Positions 14,041 through 55,297 are shown, numbered from the stretch's first letter. The stretch: 64,000 nucleotides of DNA from Dethiobacter sp. (GCA_020725665.1 DYEO01000024.1:17408-81407); one strand, 5' to 3'. Notes: generated by a model from the sequence alone, not told the origin. Numbers and translations: made by a program.

Positions 14041-14071
14041 AGCCACCTGTGAAAAGGGTGGCTTATTTTCG
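14041..14071 (+). terminator. Rho-independent terminator after relaxase
   Basis: AAGCCACC-tgtgaaaa-GGGTGGCTT hairpin followed by ATTTT. Confidence 0.4.
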
Positions 14072-14111
14072 CAGGTCGGGCAAGCGGAAACGCTGACAAA
14101 GGAGGATAACT

Positions 14112-15593: not shown

Positions 15594-15685
15594 CAATATT
15601 ATAACTGCATATTTGAAGAAAGCCATGTGCGAATGAAAAACCATTGGTGCATGGCTTTCTCAATTTTGCAAGAAGGAGGAAACCA

Positions 15686-32460: not shown

Positions 32461-32543
32461 AAACACTTGATATGGCTGGATTTGTGTGGTACTGTGTGTT
32501 GCTGATAAAGCATCATGTACTGAAAAGTGAAAGGAGGAAGCGT

Positions 32544-35126: not shown

Positions 35127-36708
35127 TTTTAAGGAAAAAGCAAAGATAAAAAAGCTGAGAGTGGCTGCCTACTGCCGGGTCAGTACGGAGCTGGAGGAGC
35201 AGCAGTCCAGCTACCAGGCGCAGGTGGATTATTATACGGCGGAGATTATGAAAAACCCAGGCTGGAAGTTTGCAGGCATCTATGCTGATGAGGGCATATC
35301 CGGCACCAGCACAAAAAACAGGACAGGGTTCAATAAATTGATTGAAGACTGCATGGCAGGCAAGATTGACCTGGTGCTGACAAAATCCATCAGCCGTTTT
35401 GCAAGAAACACCCTTGACTGCATTCAATACATACGGAAACTGAAAGAAAAAAACATCGGCGTGTTCTTCGAAAAAGAAAATGTCAACACCCTGGACAGCG
35501 CTGGAGAATTTCTCATCACCATCCTCGGAAGCCTTGCCCAAGAAGAAAGCCGTTCCTTAAGCACTAACACAAGGTGGGGTGTCGTCCGCCGGTTCGAGAA
35601 GGGACAGGTTATGGTCAATCACAACAAGTTTTTAGGCTATACGAAGAATGAGGCCGGAGAGCTGGTGATTGTACCCGAAGAAGCAGAAATTGTAAGATTG
35701 ATTTTCAGATTGTACTTAGAGGGGCAAAGCATTACCCAAATTAAAAAATACTTAGAGGAAAATGGAATTAAAACCGTTACCGGAAAAAACCAATGGTCTA
35801 CAACCACCATCAACAACATGCTCTCAAATGAGAAGTACATGGGAGATGCCCTGCTGCAAAAAAGCTACACCGTAGACTACCTCACTAAGAAAAGAGTTAA
35901 AAATAATGGAATTGTTCCGCAGTATTATGTGGAGGACAGCCATCCGGCCATCATTTCCAAAGACTTGTTTCACCGGATACAGGAAGAAAAAGCACGCCGG
36001 GCTAACATTAAAAAGAGTGCTGAAAAAAGAACCAAAACCGACAGCGGGAAATACAGCTCAATATATGCTCTCACCGAATTATTGATATGCGGGGAGTGCG
36101 GCAAGCCTTATAGACGGGCATCCTGGACAGCATACAGTGAGAAAAGGATTGTCTGGCGGTGCTTAAACAGGCTGGAGTACGGGAAAAAACACTGCCAAAA
36201 GTCTCCGACCATTGATGAAGATGTTTTGCATAGAGCCATCATGGATGCTTTCAATTCACTCATACAGGATAAGGGAGATTTTGTGGACACTCTCCATTCA
36301 AACATTCAGCTGGTGATGAGCAACCGGGCGAAACGGATGGACATAGCAAAAATTGAGGAACGGATTGCGGAATTGAAAAATGAGATGATAGGCTTCGTAG
36401 AGGAAAATGCAAGATGTGGGGCAGATAATACGGACTTTGACGAGTACTATGCTAAAATCTCCGCCGAATTGAAAGAACTTCAGAAGATAAAAACACAATA
36501 TACAGAACAGCAAGCCAGGCAAGACAGCTTCCAGAGAAGGATCGAGGATATGAAGAAGTTTCTGAACGCCGCAGACTGTAAATTATCAAATTTTGATAAC
36601 CAGCTTGTCAGGCAGCTTATACAAAGCATCAAGGTCGTGTCAAGGGATAAGATTCTCATAAAATTCAAGTCGGGCTTAGAGATAGAGCAAGAGCTGAGTA
36701 AAAAATAG
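35074..36708 (+). CDS. Large serine recombinase (second full-length copy)
   Basis: AAYCRVSTELEEQQSSYQAQ catalytic motif and LICGECGKPYRR zinc ribbon. RBS GGAGGAAAGG precedes the start. Confidence 0.9.
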   Translation: MAMGQRTVSVIPANPIYDFKEKAKIKKLRVAAYCRVSTELEEQQSSYQAQVDYYTAEIMKNPGWKFAGIYADEGISGTSTKNRTGFNKLIEDCMAGKIDLVLTKSISRFARNTLDCIQYIRKLKEKNIGVFFEKENVNTLDSAGEFLITILGSLAQEESRSLSTNTRWGVVRRFEKGQVMVNHNKFLGYTKNEAGELVIVPEEAEIVRLIFRLYLEGQSITQIKKYLEENGIKTVTGKNQWSTTTINNMLSNEKYMGDALLQKSYTVDYLTKKRVKNNGIVPQYYVEDSHPAIISKDLFHRIQEEKARRANIKKSAEKRTKTDSGKYSSIYALTELLICGECGKPYRRASWTAYSEKRIVWRCLNRLEYGKKHCQKSPTIDEDVLHRAIMDAFNSLIQDKGDFVDTLHSNIQLVMSNRAKRMDIAKIEERIAELKNEMIGFVEENARCGADNTDFDEYYAKISAELKELQKIKTQYTEQQARQDSFQRRIEDMKKFLNAADCKLSNFDNQLVRQLIQSIKVVSRDKILIKFKSGLEIEQELSKK

Positions 36709-37055: not shown

Positions 37056-39083
37056 ATGTATATCAGTAAAGTTGCGATTAGAAATTTTAGAGTATTTGAC
37101 GATATTGGAATTGTTGCCACTTTCAAAAAGGGCGTTAATGCTATTATTGGAGAAAACAATAGCGGAAAAACAGCCCTGATTGATGCTATTAGAATCGCTT
37201 TCTCCAGTGTCCCTTATAAAAAAGACATTTACTTTAATAAATCAGATTTCCATATTAATACTAAGGGAGAAGTTGCGAAGACTGCACAAATAGATGTATA
37301 TTTTGATGAAGTGTCAGAAGATCTTTTTGAAATATGGGACCCGGAAAATCCAACCAAGGGTGAGTTTCATGTTCGGTATTATACTGTGCCCGGAAAAAAT
37401 GGTTTAGAGAAGATTCGCTATACGGCTTGGGGTGGGCCTGTTGAAGGTAACACATTATCAGTAGAAACTTTTGATGCCCTTGAAGTGGTATTTTTAGGGG
37501 CCTTAAGGGATGCTGAAAGTGAATTGAAGCCTTCACGTTCTAGCAAACTTGCGAACTTACTTGGGACAGTGGCAGATAGTGATATTGCACGACAAGAGCT
37601 TATCGATATACTAATCAAAGCAAATGCAGAATTACTAAAAAAGACAGCTATAACAAAAACACGAGAAATTATTAATACTAACCTTGCAATGATTGAACAA
37701 GAAGTTATGCAGCAAAGAATCGATATAGGTTTAATTGAACCAAAGTTTGAATCTATTGCATCATCTTTAAGAACATGGCTAAAACCCCGCTGGTTTTTTA
37801 TTGATAAGGACAATGATATATACACAAATATAATTGAGATATGCTCTAAAGAAGGGAATCAGAAATTAATTGAACAATGTGTGGAAGGAGTTTACCTTGA
37901 TATTCAGGGTTTTTTGAGGCTAGATGAGCCTATTGAAACAAAAACTAAAGAAGCACTTACCAATTTAGCATCTCACTCATTGGAATTATATCAAAACGGA
38001 CTTGGGTATAACAACATTTTGTTTATGTCGGCGGTCTTAGGGGATATGGGATATTCAAAAGGCAATATAGTCTATAATCTTCTTATAGTAGAAGAACCAG
38101 AAGCCCATCTTCATCCTCAGTTACAAGAGTTAGTACATAGCTTTTTCGAAAATAAGCAGCAACCTTCGCCCAGCATACAAGTTTTTTACACATCACATTC
38201 GCCGACTCTTGTTTCACGAATTGGAATAGATAAAATCAATTTACTTTTTGAAAAAGACCATAGGATACAATGCACTCCATTAGCTGAAGCTAATTTAAAG
38301 GGCAACGAAAAGGAGTATCTTGAACGTTACCTTGATGTAACTAAATCACAAATGTTTTTTGCAAAAGGTATTATATTCGTTGAAGGAATTTGTGAAGCCT
38401 TACTATTACCGGAGATGGCGAAACTCTTATCACGACCATTAGATAAATATGCTGTCGAGGTAGTAAATGTTGACGGCGTTTCTTTTAAACCATTTGCACA
38501 TCTATTCACTAAGTCGGATTCCTCAGTTTGTGCGTTCGCGAAAACGGCACTGATAACTGATGACGATAGATGCACTGATAAAGAGGATAAAGATACTTAT
38601 ATATCTAAGGATTACGACTATGATACGGACAAGCTGGACGAGGTAATTAAAAAACTTTCTATAGGAAAACCATCATCAAGGTGCACAGAAATATGTTCTG
38701 TATGTGAAGCTACTCATATACAGCCATTTACCGCTAAAAAGACTTTAGAGTACGAACTGGCACTATCACCTAATAATGTGCCGTTTATTCTTAACGCTAT
38801 AATTGAAGCATACCCACAGGTAGGACCAAAACTATCAGAAAGAGTTGCATCCTTAAATACCGCTGAAGAAAGGGCTGCATGCATATGGCTCTTTATTCAA
38901 ACCAGAAATAAAAGCAAAGGTAGTTTTGCTCAAGCATTGTCAAAAATTATAAGAGACCAGGTTGAAAAACTAGCAGAAAACATAGAAGTAGAAAAGAAAT
39001 TTTGTGTTCCATTGTACATTAAAAAGGCTATCTATGCTGTTACTGAAGAGGAGGACTCCGTTGATGAAGAAATTGACACCTGA
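37056..39083 (+). CDS. gajA: OLD-family ATPase/Toprim endonuclease (Gabija GajA-like, class 2 OLD)
   Basis: Walker A GENNSGKTALIDA, the EEPEAHLHPQLQ motif typical of OLD ABC-ATPases, and a C-terminal Toprim with IFVEGICEALLL and TDDD. Confidence 0.75.
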   Translation: MYISKVAIRNFRVFDDIGIVATFKKGVNAIIGENNSGKTALIDAIRIAFSSVPYKKDIYFNKSDFHINTKGEVAKTAQIDVYFDEVSEDLFEIWDPENPTKGEFHVRYYTVPGKNGLEKIRYTAWGGPVEGNTLSVETFDALEVVFLGALRDAESELKPSRSSKLANLLGTVADSDIARQELIDILIKANAELLKKTAITKTREIINTNLAMIEQEVMQQRIDIGLIEPKFESIASSLRTWLKPRWFFIDKDNDIYTNIIEICSKEGNQKLIEQCVEGVYLDIQGFLRLDEPIETKTKEALTNLASHSLELYQNGLGYNNILFMSAVLGDMGYSKGNIVYNLLIVEEPEAHLHPQLQELVHSFFENKQQPSPSIQVFYTSHSPTLVSRIGIDKINLLFEKDHRIQCTPLAEANLKGNEKEYLERYLDVTKSQMFFAKGIIFVEGICEALLLPEMAKLLSRPLDKYAVEVVNVDGVSFKPFAHLFTKSDSSVCAFAKTALITDDDRCTDKEDKDTYISKDYDYDTDKLDEVIKKLSIGKPSSRCTEICSVCEATHIQPFTAKKTLEYELALSPNNVPFILNAIIEAYPQVGPKLSERVASLNTAEERAACIWLFIQTRNKSKGSFAQALSKIIRDQVEKLAENIEVEKKFCVPLYIKKAIYAVTEEEDSVDEEIDT

Positions 39084-40821
39084 GCAAGAAGCCTTTTTAG
39101 AAGCAGAGGGTAAAATTGTTCTTTGTGCGTGCCCCGGAAGTGGCAAAACATTTATCGTTGCAAGGAAATTGCTAAAATACGTTGAGAATTGGGAGTATGC
39201 ACATAGAGGTGTAGCTGTACTGTCGTTTACTAATGTTGCAAGTCAAGAAATAGATAAACAAACTAAAGAACTGATGCCAGAGGGGTATCGTATAGAATAC
39301 CCTCATTTTATTGGAACAATAGATAGCTTTATTGACAGTTTTATTCTATTAAGGTTTGGGTATCTGATGCAAGAAGGAAGTAGGAAAAGACCAGTAATAT
39401 TACATGAAAACTATGGTGAGATAAGGTTTTATACCAAAAATAAGGAATGCCATGCTCGAGGTTGTATATCCAATCCTTTTGAATTTCATTGGTCTTCAGA
39501 TGGGAAGTTGTTGAGAAATGGTAAAAAAGTCGATTGCTCCATTACGACCAAAAAACCATGTGTTGCGTTTAAACAGGCAATGATAAAAAAAGGCTTTGTT
39601 ACACAGAATGAAGCAACTGCGTTATCATATAGACTTCTTAAAAAATATCCTCAAATTGTAGATGCTATTGTACGGCGCTTCCCTATTGTAATGATTGATG
39701 AAGCACAAGATACATCAAAGGAACAAATGGAAATTATTGATTTGTTAACTGATGCAGGCGTAAAAACTATTATTCTCGTTGGAGACCCAGACCAATCAAT
39801 ATATGAATGGCGTAATGCTACTCCGGAATTTTTTATTGCCAAAGTGAAGGATGACAACTGGAAAACAATGTGGCTGACTTCCAATTTTAGGAGCTCCCAG
39901 TTAATATGTAATGCAACACAAGTGTTTTCACACTCATTGGCTTCAAGGCAACCAAGTAAGGCTGAGGGAGAGTTTGCTCTGTATCAACAGAAACCGATTT
40001 TATTGAATTATAGCAATCAAACTGATAAGAGTGACATTATTAATAAATTTAAGGAACTCTGCCAAGAAAACGGAATTGAATGGACTCCAAGCAAAGTAGC
40101 AGTTTTGACTAGAGGTAAAATCCATAAAGGTATTGATATCGATGGGCTTTGGAAGAGCCCAGAGGTCGAATCCTTGGCTAAAGCATCTTACGAATGGTAT
40201 AAAGGTTCACGCCGTAAAGCATTTAGTCTTTGTGAAAAAGTGCTGTACAGCCTTACAATTGGTGACATAGGCGATATAAAACATGAGATTAGACAAGTTA
40301 TCGAAAACATTATGCCTTACGAAAACTGGAGAAAACATGTAGTAAAACTACTTGTTTCACTCCCTGATCCAAACATCAAATTGTCAGACTGGGTTAAAAG
40401 TATGTTATCAACAATTACTAATATAATTCAGTCTGCGGAAGATATTTCTCTGATACCAGCTATATCATTGCAAGATAAAATAAAAATTAAGTTACGGGAT
40501 GCTAAAAACCCAGGTTTTCAGTCAATACCATTACGTAATTATATTGAAAAAAGGGACGAAAATGATATTACCTTATCTTCTGTACATGGAGTAAAGGGAG
40601 AAACCTATGATGCAATTATGTTAATTATTGAAGGGATAAAAGGCAATACGTTAACGCCTACTATGATAGATACAGCTCCTTTAGATAGTGAGTTAATTCG
40701 TATAGCATATGTAGCTATGACAAGACCACGAAAGCTTCTTGTCGTAGCACTTCCGGTAATGAAAAATAAGAAGTCGTTTAAAAGGTTACCACTAGATAAA
40801 TGTATATATACGCAAATTTAG
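39064..40821 (+). CDS. gajB: UvrD/Rep-family helicase (Gabija GajB-like)
   Basis: Walker A CACPGSGKTF, Walker B IMIDEAQDTS, and ILVGDPDQSIYEWRNA motif. Overlaps the gajA end. Confidence 0.75.
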   Translation: MKKLTPEQEAFLEAEGKIVLCACPGSGKTFIVARKLLKYVENWEYAHRGVAVLSFTNVASQEIDKQTKELMPEGYRIEYPHFIGTIDSFIDSFILLRFGYLMQEGSRKRPVILHENYGEIRFYTKNKECHARGCISNPFEFHWSSDGKLLRNGKKVDCSITTKKPCVAFKQAMIKKGFVTQNEATALSYRLLKKYPQIVDAIVRRFPIVMIDEAQDTSKEQMEIIDLLTDAGVKTIILVGDPDQSIYEWRNATPEFFIAKVKDDNWKTMWLTSNFRSSQLICNATQVFSHSLASRQPSKAEGEFALYQQKPILLNYSNQTDKSDIINKFKELCQENGIEWTPSKVAVLTRGKIHKGIDIDGLWKSPEVESLAKASYEWYKGSRRKAFSLCEKVLYSLTIGDIGDIKHEIRQVIENIMPYENWRKHVVKLLVSLPDPNIKLSDWVKSMLSTITNIIQSAEDISLIPAISLQDKIKIKLRDAKNPGFQSIPLRNYIEKRDENDITLSSVHGVKGETYDAIMLIIEGIKGNTLTPTMIDTAPLDSELIRIAYVAMTRPRKLLVVALPVMKNKKSFKRLPLDKCIYTQI

Positions 40822-40854
40822 TAAAGAGTTTTAAATTATTGCGGGGGGATAGAA

Positions 40855-42825
40855 ATGAATTTATGGCCAGATCATGAAACAAATATCGACCTTCTTGGCT
40901 TTTCCTACATTGCTGATGCTGTTGCAAATCTGGCTTCCGCAGATCATTTGCTTCCAGCTACCATTGGCGTTTTTGGTGACTGGGGTAGTGGCAAGTCAAG
41001 CCTGATTTCAATGGTTCGGCAAAAGCTTAAAAAAAACGAAAGAACATTAGTGCTAGATTTTAATGGCTGGCTCTTTGAGGGATATGATGACGCAAAGTCC
41101 GCGCTTATGGGTACAATTATCGATGAGATTTTAAGTCATCAAACACCAAGTAAAAAGGTAAAAACTCTTGCGGTGAATTTGTTGCGCCGGGTAAATTGGT
41201 TCCGGGTGGCAGGTACGGTGATGCGCCACAGTGTTAAATATGGGACAGCATTGCTTACCGGAGGTCCAGCAGGTGTGGGGCTGATTGCAGGCCTTGATGC
41301 CAAACAGGCTCTGGAAAAGGCCTCAGAGAAAATTATTGATGTAAAAGAGGAAGAGTTAAACAAGCTGTTTGAGAGCGAGACGGCACACAATTTAAGGCGG
41401 GGCATACGTGAATTCCGGAAGGATTTTGAGTCCTTACTCAGTGAGAGTAACATAGAAAAACTAGTAGTTATCATTGATGATCTTGATAGGTGCCTGCCTG
41501 ACACAATTATAGAAACTCTTGAAGCCATTAAGCTTTTTCTCTTTGTACCCCGGACAGCCTTTATAATCGGAGCGGATGAGAGGCTGGTAGAATACGCTGT
41601 AAAACAGCGTTTTCCGGAGTTTCAGGGCAACAAATCAGAGGTAGGCAAGGACTACCTGGAAAAGCTAATTCAATATCCGGTAAGGGTACCACCTCTTGGC
41701 AGGGCAGAAATGGAAACCTATATCTCACTACTTTTTACCGAAGCCTCTGGTTTAGACAGTGACTTAATAACGAAAACACGCACCAAAGCTTTAGAGTGTA
41801 TAGGCACGGACCTTGAACTAAGCTTTGGCATTGAGGAAGCCCAGGGAGTGATTGGGGAACTATCTAAAGAATTACAGGAGAGCCTGGCCATCTCTGCTCG
41901 AATTGCGCCGCTTTTAGCGAGGGGACTCAATGGGAATCCACGTCAGTGCAAGCGATTCCTAAACACATTTGTTCTCCGTTTAGAAATGGCTAGACTGCGT
42001 GGAATTACCCTTGAGCAGCGCGTCCTGGTAAAACTGATGTTGCTTGAGCGATTCAGGCCGGAATCTTTTAAACAACTTGCCCGCTGGCAGGCTGCCCAGG
42101 GTGGGCGGCCACAACAACTAAAAAATGCTGAATTATTCTTAGAAGCAGAAAAAGAATATTGCCAACCTTCAGTCGAAGCAAGAGATGAGGCAAGAGATAA
42201 ACATGGTGTGAGCGAAACTGAAAAGGGAGCTACAGGAAAAGAACCAGAAAAATCACCTCAACAATTGGATACGGATATGCAAGCCTGGCTTTCCGATCCT
42301 GTATTAAAAGAATGGATCGAATTTGAGCCCAGGCTTCGAGATACAGATCTCCGCCCCTATTTCTTTTTCTCACGGGACCTGTTAGGTGCGATCTCTGGTT
42401 CAGCCCAGAGAATGAGCAGGCAGGCGCAAGAAATATTAGCCAAAATTCTCAATGAAAGTGAAGCTGTCAGAAGGACTGCGCTTAAAAACGCAGCACAACT
42501 GAGTGAAATGGATGCTGCATCGGTTCTTGAAGGAATCAGTTCCCGTGTTCGGCAAGAAGAAGATTATGGAGCGGATACTTCTGCATTTCAACGTCTCTTT
42601 GACTGGGGAGAGGCTCGTCCTGAACTTCTTGGGCAGATAGTTACTATATTAAATGGACTGCCTGAAGAAAGCCTTCCGATGTTTACGCCCATAAAACTTG
42701 TTAATATATGTAATGAAACGCCAACTGCACCTGCGGCATGGCAATTAATCACTCGTTGGGCTGATAGTAGTGCAAATACCAAGCTAAAAAAGGCAGCAGT
42801 TAGCGCTTTAAAAAAGAAGGAATAA
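40855..42825 (+). CDS. qatA: KAP-family P-loop NTPase (QatA-like)
   Basis: GDWGSGKSS Walker A and the hallmark KAP motif VIIDDLDRCLPD. Confidence 0.75.
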   Translation: MNLWPDHETNIDLLGFSYIADAVANLASADHLLPATIGVFGDWGSGKSSLISMVRQKLKKNERTLVLDFNGWLFEGYDDAKSALMGTIIDEILSHQTPSKKVKTLAVNLLRRVNWFRVAGTVMRHSVKYGTALLTGGPAGVGLIAGLDAKQALEKASEKIIDVKEEELNKLFESETAHNLRRGIREFRKDFESLLSESNIEKLVVIIDDLDRCLPDTIIETLEAIKLFLFVPRTAFIIGADERLVEYAVKQRFPEFQGNKSEVGKDYLEKLIQYPVRVPPLGRAEMETYISLLFTEASGLDSDLITKTRTKALECIGTDLELSFGIEEAQGVIGELSKELQESLAISARIAPLLARGLNGNPRQCKRFLNTFVLRLEMARLRGITLEQRVLVKLMLLERFRPESFKQLARWQAAQGGRPQQLKNAELFLEAEKEYCQPSVEARDEARDKHGVSETEKGATGKEPEKSPQQLDTDMQAWLSDPVLKEWIEFEPRLRDTDLRPYFFFSRDLLGAISGSAQRMSRQAQEILAKILNESEAVRRTALKNAAQLSEMDAASVLEGISSRVRQEEDYGADTSAFQRLFDWGEARPELLGQIVTILNGLPEESLPMFTPIKLVNICNETPTAPAAWQLITRWADSSANTKLKKAAVSALKKKE

Positions 42826-42837
42826 GGAGATGTTGTA

Positions 42838-43680
42838 ATGGGTACCTCAACTTCAAACCCTGGTCCGTTTGATAGACAACCCCTTTTGCCGTCCTGGGCA
42901 CTTCCACCAGATACAGGCAACGATGCAGAGCCGAATGATGGCGAAAATGAATCCCCTGATAATGGGGATCAACAAGATAATTCACCCCTCCCAACACCAC
43001 CGGTGACATGGCAGATGGCCAAGGCTTCCATGTCCCGGTTTGCTAGTACTGGTGAAAGGAATTCTTTATCCAGGGCGGGCAGAGATTATGTCGGGGCCAA
43101 AGGTGGTAGGAGGGCGGCAGCTCAAGCGGCCAGCACAGGTAAATCGGTGGCCCTAAAAGTGGGTGGATTTCTTTCCACGGTGGCAAGTGCCGGGATAAGG
43201 ACAGCACTTGATGAGATTGGCCTAGGCCATATGGTAGGAAGAAGTGCACCGGAAGTATTGGCTGCCCTTATAGATGTACTTGCTCCCGCTGGTGCCACAC
43301 TCCAGGAAGCGGCTGCCAGGAAAGCTGCTGATGACGTCTTGGAGAAACTATACGAAGACTATATTGCAAAAACAGGAGATGTAACAGCCCTGGAAAGTCT
43401 TGATAAAGATGGTATTACCAATGCCATTGAAGCAAGTGTTGCTGGCTACATATATAACCTCTGGCTTGATGAACTGGGCTTAAGCATAGAAACAAAGGCG
43501 ATATCACCATTGCAGGCAGTAGGTTTAGAACGTGATGTCAGGGTATATGTCAGGGAACGTGTAAGGCTTGAACTGGGAGAACAAGATCCGGCGTCAATTG
43601 ACTGGAATGGCCCTGCTGGGCGTAATATCATTGATACAGTTTTTCAGGAGGCATATGGCTTTTTGGAGGTGGAACAATGA
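42838..43680 (+). CDS. qatB: Hypothetical protein (QatB position)
   Basis: No motif recognised. Assigned by position between the KAP NTPase and the QueC-like gene, with an overlapping stop/start. Confidence 0.45.
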   Translation: MGTSTSNPGPFDRQPLLPSWALPPDTGNDAEPNDGENESPDNGDQQDNSPLPTPPVTWQMAKASMSRFASTGERNSLSRAGRDYVGAKGGRRAAAQAASTGKSVALKVGGFLSTVASAGIRTALDEIGLGHMVGRSAPEVLAALIDVLAPAGATLQEAAARKAADDVLEKLYEDYIAKTGDVTALESLDKDGITNAIEASVAGYIYNLWLDELGLSIETKAISPLQAVGLERDVRVYVRERVRLELGEQDPASIDWNGPAGRNIIDTVFQEAYGFLEVEQ

Positions 43681-45005
43681 GTTGGGATGTAGTTGTTAGA
43701 ATTGGGAATAGTGATAGTTTTGCTCCTATAAGCCAGGGTGGGCCTGTATTAGGCGTATCATTTGACAGGCCGGGAGATCCATTTTTGGCTCGGGAAAGTG
43801 TCCTTGATAAAATCGCAGATGTTCTTGGTTCTGTCCCAGGAAATACTGCTTGCGATCTTTTGCGTGCTGCAATTGTTGTTTATTCTGCTGATCTATTAAT
43901 CTCACGCAGATATGCAGCAGATGGGTGGACAAGGGATATTAATGTTTATCTTCCTGTCACTTCGTTAGCAGTTTGGCAGCAGGCAGGGCCGTTACTTACC
44001 AAATTATTGACCTTTCTTAGTGGGGACCGCTGGCAATTTTACTTCCGGGAGTCTTCAGCAGAACAGGAATGTTATAAAAAACTGCCTGAAAATCTGCCTG
44101 AGGTAGTATCTTTATTTTCCGGGGGTCTCGACTCCCTTATTGGTGCTATTGACCTGCTATCGGAAGGTAAAAAGGTAGCACTTGTGTCACACCATGGAGG
44201 GGGCAGCACGCCCAAATTCCAGAATGACCTATTTAAGTGTTTAAAAGACGAATATGGTGAACAGGTAGTGCCACTCCAGTTCTATGTTCTTCCTCCGCAA
44301 GTTCCCAGAATAGATTCGGACCCAGACAACGAAGATACTACACGCACGAGATCTTTTCTGTTTTTTGTACTGGGTATTGCAGTGGCTGATACTCTGGGTA
44401 CGGGTATTCCCCTATATGTAGCTGAAAACGGGCTTATCTCACTCAATGTCCCACTGACACCAGCTCGGCTTGGCAGTTGTAGCACCCGTACAACCCATCC
44501 ATACTACATTGCTTTGTTTAGGGAATTATTGCAGGCCCTAAATTTAGCTCATCCTCTGAATCTCGATTACCGGTTTAAGACAAAAGGTGAGATGCTTAGG
44601 GAAAGTAAGAATCAGGATTTGTTAAGAAGAACCCTTCCTCTTAGCATGTCCTGCGCCCACCCGGATAATCGCCGCCTTGAGAACTTACCGCCTGGTGGTC
44701 ACTGCGGGTATTGCTTCCCCTGCATCATCCGCCAGGCAGCAGTCTTTGAAAGTGGTATACCGGATGCAGCCTATGACAATGACATTTTTCACCTGCCGCC
44801 ACTCTCAAGATCAGATAAAGGGAAAGACCTACGGGCAATGGAAATTGCTCTGGAAAGATTTAGTCAACGGGGAGAGGAGAAGGCTGTTTTTGACGTACTC
44901 AGTTCCGGACCTATCTCTCCTGATGAATTATCCCATTACATCGGGGTATATTGTCGTGGGATGAAAGAAATAGCAAAATTTTTGAGGAGTAATAAAGATG
45001 AATAG
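43677..45005 (+). CDS. qatC: QueC-like PP-loop ATPase (QatC-like)
   Basis: PP-loop LFSGGLDSLIGA and a C-terminal Cys cluster CAHPD...GHCGYCFPC, as in QueC. Confidence 0.75.
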   Translation: MSWDVVVRIGNSDSFAPISQGGPVLGVSFDRPGDPFLARESVLDKIADVLGSVPGNTACDLLRAAIVVYSADLLISRRYAADGWTRDINVYLPVTSLAVWQQAGPLLTKLLTFLSGDRWQFYFRESSAEQECYKKLPENLPEVVSLFSGGLDSLIGAIDLLSEGKKVALVSHHGGGSTPKFQNDLFKCLKDEYGEQVVPLQFYVLPPQVPRIDSDPDNEDTTRTRSFLFFVLGIAVADTLGTGIPLYVAENGLISLNVPLTPARLGSCSTRTTHPYYIALFRELLQALNLAHPLNLDYRFKTKGEMLRESKNQDLLRRTLPLSMSCAHPDNRRLENLPPGGHCGYCFPCIIRQAAVFESGIPDAAYDNDIFHLPPLSRSDKGKDLRAMEIALERFSQRGEEKAVFDVLSSGPISPDELSHYIGVYCRGMKEIAKFLRSNKDE

Positions 45006-45747
45006 CCTGAATACGGGTCGGCTAGTAGACTGTCATTTTCATTTGGACCTGTTTGAAAATCCAGTTAGGATCGCAACTGAAATTGAGGCCTCAGGGGTTG
45101 AGGTAATAGCTGTTACGAATACGCCCTCTGTTTTTAAAGCCACTCAGAACCTTGTGAGTTGCTATAAATATATTCACGCTTCTCTGGGTTTACATCCCCA
45201 ACTTGTGGGAACGCGGAGCCAGGAACTTGTACTCATGGAGAATCTAATGAAGGAAACCCGTTTTATTGGGGAAGTAGGCCTGGATTACACTACCGGAAAC
45301 GAACAGGAAATTAAGCTCCAGCGAAAGGTTTTCGAAGAGATTTTAAAGCAATGCGCAGCAGAAGGAAATAAAATTCTCAATGTTCATTCACGTAGGGCAG
45401 CCAGTGATGTTATTGCTATGATTGGGCCTAATTATCCGGGACGAGTTATTCTTCACTGGTTTAGCGGAACAATAAAAGACCTAAAAAAAGCAATGGAGTA
45501 TGGTATGTACATATCAGTCAATATTTCCATGGTAAGATCGGCTAAAGGTCAAAGCCTAATAAAGCATTTGGACCCTAATCTGGTACTCACTGAGACTGAC
45601 GGTCCTTTTGTTCGTGTCGGAAAAGTACCAGCGGTTCCTGCTGAGGTCATTAATGTGATTTATTTTCTCGCTAATGCTTGGAAATGCGATTTGGAGGAAG
45701 CAAAGGCTCGTGTCTATGCAAACTATTTCAGAGCTGTTAATTTTTAA
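44998..45747 (+). CDS. qatD: TatD-family metal-dependent hydrolase/DNase (QatD-like)
   Basis: DCHFHLD, GEVGLDY, NVHSR, HWFSG and TETDGPF motifs. Confidence 0.85.
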   Translation: MNSLNTGRLVDCHFHLDLFENPVRIATEIEASGVEVIAVTNTPSVFKATQNLVSCYKYIHASLGLHPQLVGTRSQELVLMENLMKETRFIGEVGLDYTTGNEQEIKLQRKVFEEILKQCAAEGNKILNVHSRRAASDVIAMIGPNYPGRVILHWFSGTIKDLKKAMEYGMYISVNISMVRSAKGQSLIKHLDPNLVLTETDGPFVRVGKVPAVPAEVINVIYFLANAWKCDLEEAKARVYANYFRAVNF

Positions 45748-46313
45748 TATAGCATCCTGTAAACTCTTTAAAAAAATATATAAATTTTATGTTTGGAATT
45801 TTTGATGACATCTATTTGTTGTAAAGCATAACCGAAGACATCAAATATACCAAATAATTAATGAGATTAAAGAGCTAGCATAGACGGATATTCGGTCAAT
45901 GCTTTTTAGTTTTATCTGTTTCACACGCTCAACGCATATCGAGGTTGTAGTTTCGCTCAAAAGAAAACACAGCTCATAAGGCCTTGTGCGGCAAGGCTTT
46001 ATGGGTTTTTGGGGGGAATTGGCATGTTTCCGTAGGCGGGGGGAGAAAACAGGGAATTAAGCATGCGCAAATGATTTCGGCAGGATTTGGTAGAATAATG
46101 GAGAATTTCTCAAAAAGAAACAAGATGAAGGAGAAGATTGTGGCGGATTCAAGGGACAACGCGCCTTGGCAATGTTTGAGCAATACTCAAGGATGCAAAG
46201 AAACCCGATGATGCCAGATTAAGGACGTTAAAATAGTGTAAAGGTGGTATTAAGAGACTTAAATATAATCAAAGGATAATAATGCCTACTCAGACTAGCA
46301 ATGGAGGGTATAG

Positions 46314-47903
46314 TTGATGGCCAGAGCTAAAAAGGTACAGACGAACGAAACACTGGAGCAGGCCCTTTGGAAGGCGGCCGATAAGCTGCGCAAGAATATG
46401 GATGCAGCGGAATACAAGCATGTTGTCTTGGGGCTTATCTTTTTAAAATACATATCTGATGCCTTTGAGGACTTATACCAAAAATTAAAGGATTGAAAAG
46501 GCGAATACGAAGGCGCAGATCCGGAAGACCCATACGAATACCTGGCGGAAAACGTATTTTATGTCCCGCCCCAGGCCCGCTGGCTCTACCTGCAAAACCG
46601 CGCCAAGCTGCCCACCATCGGCAAAGACATTGACGATACCATGGACGCCATCGAAAAAGACAATCCTTCTTTAAAGGGCGTGTTACCCAAGATATATGCC
46701 CGCCAGAATCTGGACAAGCAGTCTCTGGGCGGCTTGATTGATTTAATTGGCACCATTGCTCTGGGTGACGAAACGGCTAAAGCTAAGGACGTATTGGGGC
46801 AAGTATATGAATATTTCCTGGGCCAGTTTGCCCTGGCTGAAGGCAAGAAGGGCGGACAGTTCTACACGCCAAGGAGCGTAGTTCAGCTGCTGGTAGAAAT
46901 GCTTGAACCGTATGAGGGCAGGGTATTTGACCCGTGCTGTGGCAGCGGCGGCATGTTTGTCCAGAGCGAAAAATTCATCGAAGCCCACAGCGACAGGTAC
47001 AAAAACGGGAAAATGGGCGGGCTGCCCATTAATCCTGCCGACAGGATCTCCATCTACGGACAGGAGAGCAACCAGACCACCTGGCGCTTGTGCAAAATGA
47101 ACCTGGCCATCAGGGGGATTGACAGCAGCAATATTAAATGGAACGCGGAAGGTTCTTTTTTGAACGACGCCCACAAGGACCTGAAGGCCGACTTTGTCAT
47201 TGCCAATCCACCCTTTAACGACAGCGACTGGGGCGGCGAACAGCTGCGCAGTGACGCCCGCTGGCAGTACGGCGTGCCGCCGGTGGGAAATGCCAACTAT
47301 GCCTGGATCCAGCACTTTATTTACCATTTGTCTTATAGGGGTACGGCCGGTTTTGTCATGGCCAAAGGTTCCCTTTCCTCCAAAAGCAATAACGAGGGAG
47401 AAATCCGCAAAAATATTATCGAAGCCAGACTGGTGGACTGTATTGTCAACCTCCCCACCAAGCTGTTTTTGAATACCCAGATCCCGGCCTGCCTGTGGTT
47501 TTTGTCCAAAAACAAGGCCAACGGCGGCTACCGCAGCCGGCAGCATGAAATACTGTTTATCGACGCCAGGAATATGGGACGGCTGATCAACCGCCGCACC
47601 CGCGAGCTTACCCAGGAGGACATCGATTTAATTGCCAGTACCTATCATAACTGGCGCAACATAGACGGTGACTACAAGGATGTTCCCGGTTTCTGCAAAT
47701 CGGCGACCATTGAAGAAGTGGCCGCGCTGGATTATGTTTTAACTCCGGGACGCTACGTAGGATTGCCTGAAGAAGAGGACGATTTCGATTATGAAGAAAG
47801 GATCAAGCAGTTAACCAGAGAGCTGAAGCAGCAGATGGAAGAGTCCCAGAGGCTGGACAGGGCAATTGCGGAAAATTTAAGGAAGATAGGGATTGAGCTA
47901 TGA
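46314..47903 (+). pseudogene. hsdM: Type I R-M methyltransferase HsdM interrupted by an in-frame TGA (46494-46496)
   Basis: N-terminal [43 protein letters not shown], then TGA, then in the same frame [29 protein letters not shown]...[10 protein letters not shown]...IANPPFN (motifs I and IV). The ORF track shows only the two pieces (46314..46496 and 46641..47903). Confidence 0.8.
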
Positions 47904-48988
47904 GTGAGTGGAAGGAAGTTAAGCTGGGGGAGATAGTGGATATAATTGGTGGTGGTACACCTAAAACCAGCGTTAAAGAATATTGGAACGGCGACATTCC
48001 TTGGTTGTCGGTAACTGATTTTAATAACAACAGAAGGTATGTATATGAAACAGAAAAAAGTATAACAGAAAAAGGATTAAACGAAAGTTCTACAAAGCTA
48101 TTAAAAAAAGGTCAACTGATTATTTCAGCAAGAGGAACTGTTGGTGCTTTAGCTCAATTAGCAAGAGATATGGCTTTTAACCAGTCGTGTTATGGTTCAC
48201 ACGGTGCTGTCTTTGATACCATTACGAGGGAAACGTTCGATTTTATAGATGTTATTTTACCCCCCCTCCCCGAACAAAAAGCCATCGCCGGCATCTTAAG
48301 CAGCCTGGACGACAAAATAGAACTGCTGCACAGGCAGAACAAAACCCTGGAAGCTATGGCAGAGACCATATTCAGGAAGTGGTTTGAGGAGGAGGCAAGC
48401 GAAGATTGGGAAATTAAAAAACTTAAAGATTTTGGTAAGATTGTATGCGGTAAAACGCCTCCGACGGTTAATAAGGAGTTTTTTAACGGTAACATACCGT
48501 TCATAAAGATACCAGATATGCATAATAAAGTATTTGTTTTTGATACGATAGATACTCTTTCTGATAAAGGCGCAGAATATCAAGCAAATAAGTTTATTCC
48601 CCCTATGTCGATTTGTGTTAGTTGCATCGCAACAGTAGGATTGGTTTCAATGAACGCATTCAAATGCCAGACAAATCAGCAGATTAATTCTCTCATACCG
48701 CAACATGACAAATATAGATATTATCTATTTCTCTTTTTAAGAGGATATCGACATGAATTATTTGCGCTTGGAAGTGGTGGAACTATGACTCTTAATATAA
48801 ATACTACTTTATTTGGTGAGATAGAATGCTATGCTCCAGATGACTATACTCTATCGAGGTTTAACAATATAATCAAACCGATTTTTGATAAAATATTTAA
48901 TAATTGCAATCAAATCCGCACCACTACAAAACTCCGCGATACATTGCTTCCCAAGCTGATCAGCGGGGAAATCCGGGTTAAGGTTTGA
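47900..48988 (+). CDS. hsdS: Type I R-M specificity subunit HsdS
   Basis: Conserved N-terminal, central and C-terminal HsdS regions ([15 protein letters not shown], central [23 protein letters not shown]-terminal [12 protein letters not shown]) with two AT-rich target-recognition domains. Confidence 0.85.
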
Positions 48989-48998
48989 TTGATAAGGG

Positions 48999-51900
48999 GT
49001 GGAAAATATGCCGAAACTGTGCGAGAACGATATAGAATTAATGGCCATAGAGGAGCTGGAGAAGCTGGGCTATACCTATATTCCTGGCCCCAGCATAGCA
49101 CCTGACGGGGAAAATCCTGAGAGGCAGTCTTACAGAGACGTTTTGTTAGTTGGCCGCGTGCGTTCGGCTATTGCTAAATTAAATCCTACCATCCCTTATG
49201 ATGCCCGGGAAGAGGCGCTGAAGCAGCTGATGCGCCTTTCCTCCCCTGACCTTATAACCAATAACGAACAATTTCACAAATTCCTGACCGAAGGCGTCGA
49301 TGTGGAATACCGCAAAAACAGCGAAATTGTAGGTGACAAAGTGTGGCTCGCTGATTTTGCGCACCCGGAAAATAATGAGTTCCTGGGAGTAAACCAATTT
49401 ACCGTTATGGAAAACAACCAGAACAAGCGCCCCGATGTGGTGCTGTTTATCAACGGCTTGCCCCTGGCGGTTATGGAACTGAAAAACGCAGCCGACGAAA
49501 ATGCGACCATTGGCGAAGCCTACGAGCAGGTTCAGACCTATAAAGCCACTATTCCCACTCTCTTTAACTACAACGAGCTGATTATTATCTCTGACGGGCT
49601 GGAGGCCAAAGCAGGTTCTCTTTCCGCTGAATTTTCGCGCTTTATGGCCTGGAAAACCCGCGACGGCTTAAGGGAAGCGCCTCGGCATGCAGGGCAATTG
49701 GAGACCCTTATCCACGGTATGCTGAAAAAAGAGGTCGTCCTCGACTTAATCCGCTACTTTATCGTCTTTGAGAAATCCAAAACAGAAGATAAACAAACAG
49801 GCCTTGTCAATATCCAAACGGTTAAGAAAATAGCGGCCTATCACCAGTATTATGCGGTAAATAAGGCTATAAGGAGTACCCTTGAAGCAGCCTCGGAAAA
49901 CGGTGACAGGAAGGGCGGGGTAATCTGGCACACCCAGGGCAGCGGAAAATCTCTCACCATGGTTTTTTATACAGGGAAACTGGTGCAACTGCTCAATAAC
50001 CCGACCGTAGTAGTGATTACCGATAGAAACGACCTGGACGACCAGTTGTTTGACACCTTTGCCGCCTCGGCACAAATACTAAAGCAGCCTCCGGTCCAGG
50101 CGGAGAGCAGGGAGCACTTAAAGGACCTCCTGCGGGTAGCCTCAGGCGGGATTATCTTCACTACCATTCAGAAGTTTTTGCCTGAAGACGATAAACTCCA
50201 GTTTGATTTATTAAGCGAGAGACGAAACATCGTGGTAATTGCCGATGAAGCCCACCGGACCCAATACGGATTTAATGCCAGGATAAGAAACATCAAGGAT
50301 GAAAACAAGAGCATCGTGGCGCAAAAAATCGCTTACGGCTTTGCCAAATACATGCGGGACGCCCTGCCCAATGCCACATATATCGGTTTTACCGGCACGC
50401 CCATCGAAAAAGAAGACGCCAATACCCCGGCAGTGTTCGGCAATTATGTTGATATTTATGATATCGCCCAGGCGGTGGAAGACGGGGCAACGGTGCGCAT
50501 TTACTACGAAAGCAGGCTGGCCAAAGTCAACCTGGACGAAGAAGGAAGGCGCCTGATTGAAGAGTTTGACGCCGAACTGGAGGAAACCGACGAATTGTCC
50601 GAAGCCCAGAAAGCCAAGGCCAAGTGGGCAAAATTAGAGGCCATCGTCGGGCATCCCAAGCGCATTGCCAACCTGGCAAAAGATATCATTGAGCATTTTG
50701 AAGCAAGGCAGGCGGTATTCGCAGGCAAAGGCATGATTGTGGCCATGAGCCGCCGGATTGCCGTTGACTTGTACAACGAAATCATAAAGCTGCGCCCCCA
50801 GTGGCACCATGACGGCCTGGACAAAGGGGTGATCAAAGTGGTGATGACGGCGGCCAGCTCCGACGGGGTGGAAATGCAAAAGCATCACACCACCAAGGCC
50901 CAGAGGAAAATGCTGGCGGACCGCATGAAAGATGAAAATGACCCGTTAAAGCTGGTCGTTGTGCGGGACATGTGGCTGACCGGCTTTGACGTGCCCTGCC
51001 TGCATACCATGTACATAGACAAACCCATGAAAGACCACAACTTGATGCAGGCCATTGCCCGGGTGAACAGGGTTTTCAAAGACAAGCCGGGGGGCCTGGT
51101 GGTTGACTATATCGGGATCGGCACCAGCCTAAAGAAGGCACTTTCTTTTTATTCCCATGCCGGTGGCAAGGGCAGCCCGGCGGAAACCCAGGAAAAGGCT
51201 GTAGACATCATGCTGGAGAAGCTGGAAGTCGTCCGCCAGATGTACCATGGGTTCGATTACAGCAAATATTTTGCTGCTCCAACCGGCGAAAAGCTATCAT
51301 TTATCTTAAGGGCGGAAGAACATATTTTAGGCTTGGAGGACGGCAAAGGGCGCTACCTCAAAGAAGTGACCCTCTTAAGCCGCGCCCATGCCCTGGCCAC
51401 ACCGCACCCTAAAACCCGGGAACATGCAGAAGAGATTGCCTTCTTTCAGGCGGTCAAGGCCAGGCTGGTTAAGTTTGAACCAGGCGGAGCAGGCGGTGGG
51501 TCAAGCTGGGAAACGACCATCAAGCAGATTGTCGATGAAGCTTTAAGCTCTGAACAGGTGATAGACATCTTTGCTGCGGCAGGCATGGAAAAACCCGAAA
51601 TCTCCATTCTTTCTGAAGATTTCTTAGCAGAAGTCAAAAACATGAAGCATAAAAATTTAGCCATTGAGCTTTTGAAAAAACTGCTCAACGACGAAATAAA
51701 AGAGCGGGGCAGGCTAAACTATGTTGTGGGCAAATCCCTTATGCAGATGCTGGAGACGGCGATAAAGAAATATCAAAACAATCTACTGACTACAGCTGAA
51801 GTAATCGAAGAGCTGATCAGGATTGCCAAAGAGATTAACGCTGCCGACAGGCGGGGAGAAGACTTGGGCCTCAGCAAAGACGATTTGGCCTTTTATGATG

Positions 51901-52217
51901 CCCTGGGGGTTAACGACAGTGCGGTTAAAGTTCTGGGCGACGACACGCTACGGGATATTGCCAGGGAACTTGCCGATAAGGTGCGTAAGAACGCCACCAT
52001 TGACTGGACAGTGAAGGAAAGCGTGCGGGCAAGGCTGATGGTCCTGGTGCGGCGGACGTTGAATAAGTACGGCTACCCGCCGGACAAACAGCAGCAAGCC
52101 GTGGAAACCGTCATGAAACAGGCGGAGATATTGGCAGATAGGTGGGCTTCACCGCAAGTTGCCTATGATATTGACCCCCTCTTTGGGATGGCCAGGGCAG
52201 CAGAAACAAAAGAGTAA
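48999..52217 (+). CDS. hsdR: Type I restriction enzyme R subunit HsdR
   Basis: SF2 motifs HTQGSGKSLTM and IADEAHRTQ, QAIARVNR, and 1072 aa length. Confidence 0.9.
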   Translation: MENMPKLCENDIELMAIEELEKLGYTYIPGPSIAPDGENPERQSYRDVLLVGRVRSAIAKLNPTIPYDAREEALKQLMRLSSPDLITNNEQFHKFLTEGVDVEYRKNSEIVGDKVWLADFAHPENNEFLGVNQFTVMENNQNKRPDVVLFINGLPLAVMELKNAADENATIGEAYEQVQTYKATIPTLFNYNELIIISDGLEAKAGSLSAEFSRFMAWKTRDGLREAPRHAGQLETLIHGMLKKEVVLDLIRYFIVFEKSKTEDKQTGLVNIQTVKKIAAYHQYYAVNKAIRSTLEAASENGDRKGGVIWHTQGSGKSLTMVFYTGKLVQLLNNPTVVVITDRNDLDDQLFDTFAASAQILKQPPVQAESREHLKDLLRVASGGIIFTTIQKFLPEDDKLQFDLLSERRNIVVIADEAHRTQYGFNARIRNIKDENKSIVAQKIAYGFAKYMRDALPNATYIGFTGTPIEKEDANTPAVFGNYVDIYDIAQAVEDGATVRIYYESRLAKVNLDEEGRRLIEEFDAELEETDELSEAQKAKAKWAKLEAIVGHPKRIANLAKDIIEHFEARQAVFAGKGMIVAMSRRIAVDLYNEIIKLRPQWHHDGLDKGVIKVVMTAASSDGVEMQKHHTTKAQRKMLADRMKDENDPLKLVVVRDMWLTGFDVPCLHTMYIDKPMKDHNLMQAIARVNRVFKDKPGGLVVDYIGIGTSLKKALSFYSHAGGKGSPAETQEKAVDIMLEKLEVVRQMYHGFDYSKYFAAPTGEKLSFILRAEEHILGLEDGKGRYLKEVTLLSRAHALATPHPKTREHAEEIAFFQAVKARLVKFEPGGAGGGSSWETTIKQIVDEALSSEQVIDIFAAAGMEKPEISILSEDFLAEVKNMKHKNLAIELLKKLLNDEIKERGRLNYVVGKSLMQMLETAIKKYQNNLLTTAEVIEELIRIAKEINAADRRGEDLGLSKDDLAFYDALGVNDSAVKVLGDDTLRDIARELADKVRKNATIDWTVKESVRARLMVLVRRTLNKYGYPPDKQQQAVETVMKQAEILADRWASPQVAYDIDPLFGMARAAETKE

Positions 52218-52274
52218 GCCGCTGAACTTTTCTCTGTGGGAAGGTTCAGTGATTACCTATGATAGTGAATAATT

Positions 52275-54095
52275 GTGCAAAAGGAAAGGAGGGCGAGCGC
52301 TTTGCCGACACAGCGCTATGCGGTTACCCAGCCGCCCATCGAGACTGTGCTTACGTGGATAAAATCCGGAGAAATCGCAATCCCGGAAATCCAGCGCCCC
52401 TTTGTTTGGAATGCCACAAAGGTCCGGAATTTTCTGGATTCATTATTTCAAGGGTTCCCAGTGGGTTACTTAATTGCCTGGCGCAACCCCAACATTAAGC
52501 TCAAGGACGGGACCCTTTCTTCCGGCAAGCGCATTTTAATTGACGGGCAGCAACGGGTAACAGCCCTGATGGCTTCATTGCTGGGACAGGAAGTGGTGAA
52601 TAAAAATTACCAGAGGGTTAAAATTCGCATTGCCTTTAATCCCAAAGAAAAAAGATTTGAAGTCACAAACCCTGCCATTGAAAAAGACAGCTCTTGGCTG
52701 CCGGATATATCCCTGGTCTTTAGCCCTCATACCAGCTTGTTTGAACTTGTAAACAGGTATTGTGAGAGGAACCCGGATACCACAACGGACGAGGTTTTTA
52801 AAAGCATTGAGCTGCTTAAGCGTATTACCAGCAACCAGATCGGCCTCATAGAGCTTGACTCCGAGCTTGATATAGAAACAGTTACTGAGATTTTTATCCG
52901 GGTCAATTCCGAGGGGGTAGCTTTAAACCAGGCCGACTTTGCCATGTCGAAAATCGCTGTCAATGAAACTTATGGGGGCAATATGCTCCGCAAGGCTATT
53001 GATTATTTTTGCCATATGGCAGTTAACCCTGAATTTTTCAACGTTGTTAAGAATGACGCTGTTTTTGCCCGCAGCGAGTTTTTTAACCGCATGGCCTGGT
53101 TGGGTAAAGAAAACGATCGCCTGTATGAGCCTTCTTATACAGATATGCTGCGGGTAGCGTTTACTTCTGAATTTAAAAGGGGACGTTTGGAAGACCTGGT
53201 GGCGCTATTATCCGGCCGCAACTTTGAAACCAGGCAGTACGAGGAAGCCATAGTGGAAGATTCTTTCAGCAGGCTGAAACAGGGTATTTTAAACTTTGTC
53301 AATGAAACAAATTTCCAACGCTTTATCATGATCATCCGCTCCGCCGGGTTTGTGGACTCCTCCTTGCTTGGTTCACAAAACGCGCTGAATTTTGCTTATA
53401 TCCTGTATTTAACTATGCGCGGGCAGGGCATACCTCCCGCTGAGATTGAACGTTATGTCCGCCGCTGGTATGTAATGACCGTCCTAACCGGGCGCTATTC
53501 CGGCGATCCGGAAGGAACGATGGACTATGACATTCGCCAGATACATACTCAAGGGGTGCAGGCCTATTTAGACGGGCTAATCCGCGGGGAGCTCTCTGAG
53601 ACCTTCTGGGAGGTAGCCTTGCCCCAGGCTTTAAATACCTCGGTGGCCTCCAGCCCCTATTTCCGTGTGTTCCAGGCTGCCCAGGTAAAGCTGGGCGACC
53701 GCGGCTTTCTCTCTAAAGACATCGGCGTGCGGGAGCTGGTGGAAATCCGGTCGCATGTGCACCACATATTTCCCAGCGACTATTTAAAGAAAAAGGGTTT
53801 TGCCAGAGGGCAGTACAACCAGATTGCCAACTATGTGGTGGCGCAGAGCGAAATAAATATTGCCATAGGCAATAAGGAGCCGAAAGTTTACTTTCAAGAG
53901 CTCCTTGCTCAATGCCAGGGTGGCCCTAAAAAATACGGTAATATAACGGACCTACAGGAGCTGCAGGAAAACCTGGCTATGAACTGTATTCCTGATGGTA
54001 TGGAAAAAATGGCCGCCGATGACTACGAAGAGTTTTTGAAGAAGCGCCGCAAATTAATGGCGGAGAAAATAAGAACATATTTTGAGAGCCTGTAG
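52275..54095 (+). CDS. DUF262 (ParB-like) / DUF1524 (HNH-like) nuclease, GmrSD/BrxU-like Type IV restriction enzyme
   Basis: [10 protein letters not shown] and [10 protein letters not shown] (DUF262 DGQQR motif). C-terminal [13 protein letters not shown] is a His-Me finger. The start may be TTG 52302, given RBS AGGAGGG. Confidence 0.8.
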
Positions 54096-54098
54096 TAA

Positions 54099-54347
<249 letters not shown>

Positions 54348-54445: not shown

Positions 54446-55297
54446 TTGTATTGTATGGATACGTTAATCATCGAGCTCACAGCTGGATTGGTTGACAATT
54501 TCGCAACTCCGAACAGTCGAACCAAAGTCGAGACCGAAGTCATCAACAATAGTGGCTGGCTTACGGTCGAGGACCTGTCCGGAGTTCCCCGTTCAGTTCA
54601 TCGGTTCACTGTCCACAATGCGGCGGACGTTGGCTGCCCACCACTTGATGCAGAACAATCATCCTATATCATCGCAATGGGTTGTTCTCTGATCTCATCT
54701 CGGGTTTTGTTTTCACCATTGCAACCGCAGCGGTTCACTCCCAATCTTCGGCTTGGCGAACTTCCTTCCAAAGTGGAGGTTGCAGAGACGCCCACGGGTA
54801 AAAATATCTTGATAACCGAAACCATAAGGGTGACGGGATCGATCAGCATCTTGATAAGCACCAAGGTTATACTCGATGCATCGAAACTCTCAGACGTGAT
54901 CGAGCGTCTCCTGAAGCTTCGTCCGTTTGACTTGGCGAATCGTAGTTTGGCAGAACTTAATGTTCTTGATGCTCTAAAAAGATACAGAGATGCCCTTCAC
55001 GCTGCTGAACCGCTTGCTTGTTACAAAGCTCTCTTTTCGGCATTGGAGAAATCAGTCAATCGCTCCGGAGAGGAGAAGGAAGGAGCTGCCTTTGATTCAG
55101 CCGCATCTGCCGCTACTGGGTTATCGGCAACCGTCATCAAGGAGATTCGTGAATTCAACAATCGTGTCAAGCACGCAATTCGCAAGGAAAAGAAGGAAAA
55201 GGACTTCGAGACATTGAGACGAGGTGAGTCCAATCTGGCTCGCATTGCAATCAACCTAAAGGTAGCCACAGACAATGCATTGCTCGCACAAATATGA
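54446..55297 (+). CDS. Hypothetical protein
   Basis: 283 aa ORF with GC about 50% and no motif recognised. Confidence 0.3.
   Translation: MYCMDTLIIELTAGLVDNFATPNSRTKVETEVINNSGWLTVEDLSGVPRSVHRFTVHNAADVGCPPLDAEQSSYIIAMGCSLISSRVLFSPLQPQRFTPNLRLGELPSKVEVAETPTGKNILITETIRVTGSISILISTKVILDASKLSDVIERLLKLRPFDLANRSLAELNVLDALKRYRDALHAAEPLACYKALFSALEKSVNRSGEEKEGAAFDSAASAATGLSATVIKEIREFNNRVKHAIRKEKKEKDFETLRRGESNLARIAINLKVATDNALLAQI

Follow-up and report, generated by a model that had tools for sequence, protein, structure and literature searches.

A Type I restriction-modification operon with a nonsense codon in hsdM and an internal deletion in hsdS, probably inactivated recently, in the defence island of a conjugative element

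By translating a stretch of 64,000 nucleotides (hereafter the window, that is the whole stretch of DNA analysed) and comparing its genes with their homologues, we found an hsdM-hsdS-hsdR Type I operon that seems to have been caught early in decay. A cluster of substitutions changed codon 60 of hsdM from Gly to TGA; normal translation would therefore stop at residue 59, short of the catalytic methyltransferase domain, which would not be made at useful levels. Independently of this, about 25-27 codons are missing from the core of the first target-recognition domain (TRD1) of hsdS. With the M2S1 core lost, neither methylation nor positioning of HsdR is expected, and the predicted phenotype is r- m-. 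M2S1 is required for methylation as well as for restriction (PMC12707154). Loss of M or S would therefore, in contrast to that of a Type II methylase, be non-toxic; since restriction is lost together with modification, the inactivation would be harmless to the host. We infer both the loss of function and its timing from the sequence, and we consider it likely that the operon is a decaying Type I system (r- m-), inactivated recently, within the crowded defence island that a conjugative element carries. As a pseudogenisation event it is an ordinary one, of an already known kind.

The features of the hsdM region are the following:

46303-46308, + strand: Shine-Dalgarno-like GGAGGG, 8 nt 5' of the hsdM ATG, read directly and kept in the related loci L001, L002 and L003
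46317-47903, + strand: hsdM (Type I methyltransferase subunit), a single frame of 528 codons with a stop at codon 60, from translation, Pfam and homologues
46317-46496, + strand: N-terminal ORF of 59 aa left by the stop, spanning the first part of the HsdM N-terminal domain
46493-46496, + strand: three clustered substitutions by comparison with L001, L002 and L003 (GAG GGC to GAT TGA; E59D plus G60stop), from DNA alignment and branch assignment
46494-46496, + strand: premature TGA in place of Gly60, next base A (TGAA context)

The preliminary description had presented hsdM as a single frame broken by one in-frame TGA, and the translation together with three assemblies bears this out. From ATG 46317 to the terminal TGA at 47901-47903, the sole internal break in the translated frame is the TGA at 46494-46496, which is in frame with TTG 46314 as well as with ATG 46317. 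The latter is the likely start, and homologues start with MA(K/R)AK. When the stop was masked, the joined product displayed complete HsdM_N (residues 13-143, 3.8e-27) and N6_Mtase (residues 156-488, 3.6e-111) Pfam domains, and the motifs DPCCGSGG and NPPF (IANPPFN) were present in the translation, that is an N-terminal domain followed by a gamma-class N6-adenine methyltransferase. The product is 94% identical to the full-length homologues P0001 and P0002 (528/529 aa). Hence, all the parts of an HsdM are encoded, but the uninterrupted hsdM of a functional Type I system is not, codon 60 being TGA.

The TGA is the consensus of at least three assemblies and not a one-off assembly glitch. Besides the window itself, contig JBFMEO010000029.1 (53,336 bases) of assembly GCA_040753375.1 is 100% identical to the window over 21,089 bases (37900-58988), TGA included, and its record annotates no gene at hsdM. 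The Logan contig SRR29635773_106484 (1,057 bases) is also 100% identical to 45993-47049, stop included, and the 59-aa N-terminal ORF is annotated on it (L087) as a separate gene. Next to it in the same Logan assembly, the contig spanning 47031-49116 departs from the window by a single synonymous T/C at 47546. This position belongs to His410, which is CAT in the window and CAC in SRR29635773, and the Logan contigs break at about 47031-47049; the difference and the break together hint at some strain-level variation in the sample. Exact-pattern scans of JGI metagenomes found neither the hsdM TGA allele nor a near-identical wild-type allele.

A sequencing or assembly artefact, or a minority allele, would leave the true hsdM with a sense codon at position 60. 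The source is indeed a metagenome-assembled genome, the samples behind the three assemblies may be identical or closely related, the pattern of three differences in four bases is unusual, and TauE, also in the window, is split by a frameshift beside a T run. Nevertheless, the same sequence stands in two assemblies at NCBI, and Logan, an independent assembler, recovered it directly from run SRR29635773 in a contig that runs unbroken for about 500 bases on each side of the stop. Since the neighbouring Logan contig carries the synonymous difference at 47546, it is not a mere copy of the same consensus; moreover, substitution clusters are not typical of assembly errors. Such an artefact is thus quite improbable.

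As an origin of the stop, the preliminary description had raised a transition from a TGG (Trp) codon, a possibility that the homologues contradict. HsdM column 60 is Gly in 118/118 of the closest homologues (76-94% identity), and at the DNA level AAG GAT TGA AAA in the window corresponds to AAG GAG GGC AAA in L001/L002 and L003, the nearest relatives (94% protein identity). Codon 60 is GGG and GGA in the related loci L004 and L005, respectively, and a stop was found at this codon in none of the 83 related hsdM loci that could be aligned there (84 loci in the set). Gly in the closest homologues and in the DNA relatives therefore rules out a Trp-codon origin, the ancestral codon being a Gly codon (GGN). 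In this light, the simplest path to the stop would be GGC to GGA, a synonymous change, and then GGA to TGA; the second step and the G-to-T change beside it (E59D) may have arisen at once, through a tandem GG-to-TT event. In more distant HsdM homologues, site 60 is occupied by Q, E, D, S, L, P or V, and PDB 3KHK, the solved HsdM structure closest to this one, shows insertions of 13, 6 and 3 residues near the site, from which site 60 is read as a variable surface loop.

Genetic code 25 (Gracilibacteria/Absconditabacteria), in which UGA means Gly, offers another way to look at this codon. If recoding were programmed, UGA would be decoded here as selenocysteine or, as in code 25, as glycine, and the in-frame UGA of hsdM does stand at the homologues' Gly position, a likeness to genes of code 25 and to selenoprotein genes. 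We give this reading next to no chance, because here UGA behaves as a normal terminator, a single gene is affected, the homologues carry Gly and not Cys, and nothing resembling a SECIS structure accompanies the codon. Indeed, TGA terminates 15 of the 45 long ORFs in the window, hsdM included. The TGA ends of hsdM and hsdS match the C-termini of their homologues, and GajA and QatB, which also end with TGA, cover their PADLOC profiles end to end. When TGA was read as sense, hsdM was the sole real gene in the 64 kb to be joined across a single TGA, in-frame TGA being absent from all the other genes. These data uphold the earlier statements that TGA is used as a genuine stop elsewhere in the window, at ends supported by homologues, and that global recoding is unlikely; global reassignment of UGA (code 25 or code 4) is ruled out by the same counts. 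As for selenocysteine, no SECIS-like hairpin was found downstream, the 67 nt from the UGA folding at -8.4 kcal/mol against a mean of -10.85 for shuffled sequences (z = +0.98), that is no better than shuffled RNA. An Rfam search at the stop region returned zero matches and no tRNA gene, tRNA-Sec included, was found in the window. Without a hairpin or an Rfam match, and with Gly rather than Cys in the homologues, we reject selenocysteine as well. Also against programmed recoding, the organism is labelled as a member of the Bacillota (HsdS record MEW5920528.1, 'MAG: ... [Bacillota bacterium]'). The match between UGA and Gly at codon 60 is a coincidence.

Downstream of hsdM, the operon continues as follows:

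47900-48988, + strand: hsdS (specificity subunit), 362 aa, its start overlapping the hsdM stop (ATGA); Pfam Methylase_S 3.9e-45
48194-48202, + strand: in-frame deletion junction in TRD1 of hsdS (...NQSCYG / SHGAVFDT...), break at about 48196/48197, about 25-27 codons missing
49008-52217, + strand: intact hsdR (restriction/translocase subunit), 1069 aa when counted from ATG 49008, with GTG 48999 as the start of the mechanical ORF

Both hsdS and hsdR had been described as intact, which stands for hsdR, with its full-length domains and no stops, but not for hsdS, whose TRD1 carries a deletion shared by 0/120 homologues. HsdS retains both conserved regions and TRD2, and its central and C-terminal conserved regions align with those of L003 and L004 HsdS. 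By using residues 1-162 as query for TRD1, we retrieved 2,063 homologues and compared the best 120. The interval from Q95 to F105 counts 11 residues in the window and 36-38 in 120/120 of these best homologues of the 2,063, and the missing segment includes a nearly invariant FLYYLLK helix. In the HsdS structure PDB 1YF2, about 25-40 extra residues occupy the same place in both TRDs. Logan contig L086 carries the deletion as well. Thus, a functional HsdS has two complete TRDs and this one has a TRD1 short by 25-27 residues: its frame is open, yet the gene as read here is not intact, with an irreversible deletion in a conserved part of the DNA-recognition domain, which would impair function. The HsdR domains HSDR_N, SWI2_SNF2/ResIII, T1R_D3-like and T1RH-like_C, in contrast, are all full length (Pfam), as expected of a complete HsdR, and the protein is stop-free and 90% identical to HsdR of L002 and L003.

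In the L001 and L002 operons, extra genes lie between hsdM and hsdR, encoding a nucleotidyltransferase-substrate-binding protein, an HsdS-nucleotidyltransferase fusion and a SIR2 plus HerA/DUF87 pair. The cargo within such Type I operons is variable.

The operon resembles the classical Type I systems EcoKI and EcoR124I by its three subunit genes in one operon, with overlapping or adjacent ORFs, and by the same HsdM, HsdS and HsdR domains. It differs from them by the TGA at hsdM codon 60 and by a TRD1 without about 25-27 residues, so that a normal M2S1 core would not be assembled as encoded. Phase-variable Type I systems, which carry simple-sequence repeats in hsdM or hsdS or invertible hsdS shufflons, reach the same outcome, the system being off through a change in hsdM or hsdS; here the changes are a substitution and a deletion, neither of which is a reversible switch. 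No tandem repeat was found near 46494, and within 45700-54200 we found no inverted repeat longer than 23 nt, hsdS-sized repeats included, and no second copy of hsdS. Phase variation is therefore ruled out, neither simple-sequence repeats nor inverted repeats having been found.

Selection on hsdM and hsdR bears on the age of the inactivation. Changes on the hsdM branch leading to the window were counted in a three-taxon comparison with L001 and L003, which gave 43.5 synonymous and 7.5 non-synonymous changes (dN/dS 0.047); the nearest relatives stand at dS 0.4-0.7, so these estimates of selection on hsdM are poorly resolved. In the same comparison, codons 1-108 hold 7.5 non-synonymous against 12.5 synonymous changes and the other 420 codons 0 against 31. 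With wider sampling the contrast softens. Pairwise dN/dS is 0.06-0.08 in the first 108 codons against 0.05-0.06 in the rest, and departures of HsdM from conserved columns number 6 in the N-terminal and 14 in the C-terminal part, compared with 3-10 and 9-29 in near relatives. Residues unique to the window also occur in the C-terminal part (T153, M233 and H410), at sites that also vary between the sisters. The N-terminal clustering of non-synonymous changes is thus a weak hint, and relaxed selection limited to the 108 N-terminal codons, considered as a sign of a functional truncated HsdM, failed on wider sampling. Stop aside, hsdM is, from these substitution counts, still under purifying selection, which was maintained over nearly all of the branch.

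Within 46317-46640, the changes assigned to the window branch in codons 1-108 are T16A, E59D, G60*, R76L, S90L and A108T. Two double-base changes were seen in this part of hsdM, GG to TT at 46493-46494 and TCC to CTC at codon 90.

For hsdR, window-branch dN/dS is 0.075, compared with 0.077 and 0.087 in the sisters, and HsdR departs from columns conserved at >=90% at 8 positions, compared with 5-27 in relatives. By a rough calculation, had hsdR evolved neutrally for more than about 3-4% of the branch (dS ~0.13), an excess of non-synonymous changes would be detectable in it; this roughly bounds the inactivation to less than about 3-4% of the synonymous branch length. Since hsdR is intact and displays no relaxed constraint, the inactivation would be recent, although an intact hsdR under purifying selection is also what is expected if the system were still working. 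Among the explanations offered by the preliminary description, the favoured one is therefore that hsdM, undegraded in all other respects, recently acquired a nonsense mutation, with dN/dS of hsdM (0.047) and hsdR (0.075) as in the sisters and the stop present in three assemblies.

A recent mutation has to be weighed against a leaky stop, which would account for an undegraded remainder of hsdM too. UGA is the most leaky stop codon, and some full-length HsdM with Trp60 could be made and might be active. Near-cognate tRNA-Trp would read UGA at a few per cent and yield a low level of full-length HsdM(W60), the stop acting as an attenuator or as an easily revertible off state. Readthrough of TGA inserts mostly Trp in E. 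coli (PMC11126739), and about 6% readthrough has been reported for a TGA reporter in wild-type Bacillus subtilis (PMC7918605). The loop at site 60 varies and tolerates many residues as well as insertions, so Trp is probably tolerated there; the base after the stop is A, a context shared by just 2 of the 15 genuine TGA stops in the window; and 7/8 sense codons one substitution away would regain the open frame, Leu and Ser among them being seen at this site in homologues. We nonetheless hold this reading to be unlikely. A recent mutation explains the low dN/dS equally well, the TGA allele was seen in no other lineage, be it among the related loci or in the JGI scans, and no stimulatory structure was found downstream of the UGA. 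The TRD1 deletion is non-revertible, so that a regained HsdM would not regain the enzyme, and readthrough does nothing to repair hsdS. With two lesions in one operon, decay is favoured over programmed readthrough. In-frame stops in genes with dN/dS below 1 have been reported to be widespread (Belinky et al. 2021, PMC7918605). The case described here resembles these polymorphisms (PMC7918605), and naturally inactivated restriction-modification genes, by its single stop in a conserved gene with dN/dS far below 1 and by an allele that is apparently short-lived and restricted to one lineage; it differs from them by the lesion in a partner gene, which argues for a real loss of function and not for tolerated readthrough. 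A stronger version strikes us as very unlikely: hsdM would be off or attenuated through a UGA that leaks and readily reverts, a few per cent of ribosomes would put Trp into the tolerant surface loop and so maintain traces of full-length HsdM, and any of seven single-base changes would bring back full expression. If it were true, the nonsense codon would regulate, over the short term, a costly defence system carried by a conjugative element.

Another product could be started behind the stop:

46641-47903, + strand: downstream ORF of 420 aa, from the first canonical in-frame start (Met109)

This ORF is on record as the NCBI-sourced protein P0042 (100% identical; contig of 96,585 bases) and holds the entire N6_Mtase domain; in the mechanical ORF list, hsdM appears as this ORF and a piece of 60 aa. 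In EcoKI, HsdM's N-terminal domain (about 150 aa) carries the preference for maintenance methylation, and some mutations in the domain abolish restriction (PMC12707154). An N-terminally truncated HsdM (420 aa, ATG 46641) could be made and still be functional, for instance with an altered preference for maintenance or de novo methylation, and the three-taxon count, with all window-specific non-synonymous changes in codons 1-108 and none in the other 420, would fit. That clustering, however, weakens with wider sampling. Moreover, no Shine-Dalgarno-like motif precedes ATG 46641 or the other in-frame starts: GGAGG, GAGG and AGGA were all absent from the <=20 nt upstream of any in-frame start (CTG, ATT and ATC included) between 46497 and 46650, and the AAGGA that relatives have before the Met109 site is better than the window's sequence there. 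A start at Met109 would also cut through the folded N-terminal domain (Pfam 13-143) and remove most of it, the domain with the above roles in EcoKI, and hsdS is deleted too. A functional truncated HsdM is accordingly highly improbable.

Recent inactivation of the operon also has to be placed in its surroundings, and the entire window looks like a conjugative element. Its other features are listed below:

3447-17524: conjugation genes, namely a VirB4/TraG-like ATPase, a MobL relaxase with Sel1 repeats, a Toprim protein and a type IV coupling protein
21065-27414: two overlapping large genes, one of 1047 aa with N6_N4_Mtase and one of 1069 aa with ResIII/DEAD helicase motifs
32040-32117: pemK RNA motif RF02913 (Rfam score 57.3 bits, gathering score 34.8), just 5' of the serine recombinase gene that comes first
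32472-36708: large-serine-recombinase ORFs, three in a row
37056-39083 and ~39064-40821: Gabija, GajA and GajB, respectively
40855-45747: QatABCD
52275-54095: GmrSD_N (DUF262) protein directly after hsdR, PADLOC HEC-05 match
54446-55297: ORF of 283 aa after the GmrSD_N gene, without a family match
57985-58326 and 58139/58310-58693: split TauE/SafE-type permease gene, two overlapping ORFs
62844-63890: second, shorter coupling-protein ORF (348 aa; profile positions 162-442 only), at the window end

The second, short coupling-protein ORF suggests nested or decayed mobile elements. The pair at 21065-27414 resembles a Type III-like Mod/Res or another helicase-linked restriction-modification system, and the GmrSD_N protein is probably a modification-dependent nuclease. 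The Gabija and QatABCD block (37056-45747) is a widely travelling defence module: an identical QatD sequence was found in 121 index blocks of a public collection, and the contigs that were read differ downstream (IS91-like, methylases). A Phd/ParE pair is also found in the window.

Damage is not confined to the Type I operon. The middle serine recombinase (34146-35126, 326 aa) has Recombinase and zinc-ribbon domains without a catalytic Resolvase domain and is probably a remnant. TauE appears to be split by a frameshift near a T run at about 58235-58241, its halves being recorded at NCBI as separate genes of 113 and 127 aa. We counted both, the split TauE and the recombinase without its catalytic domain, in favour of decay. 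Besides the Type I operon, at least four other defence systems lie in the window, and such redundancy may explain why loss of the Type I system is tolerated.

For annotation, these observations mean that hsdM should be described as a pseudogene rather than as the 420-aa protein found in one public record, that hsdS should be flagged as internally deleted, and that an active Type I specificity should not be predicted for this organism. The operon would offer a small, clean example of the early decay of a defence system on a crowded mobile island, with a nonsense codon in M, a deletion in S and a pristine R, and this pattern would fit with what is known of Type I systems, where M or S can safely be the first to go.
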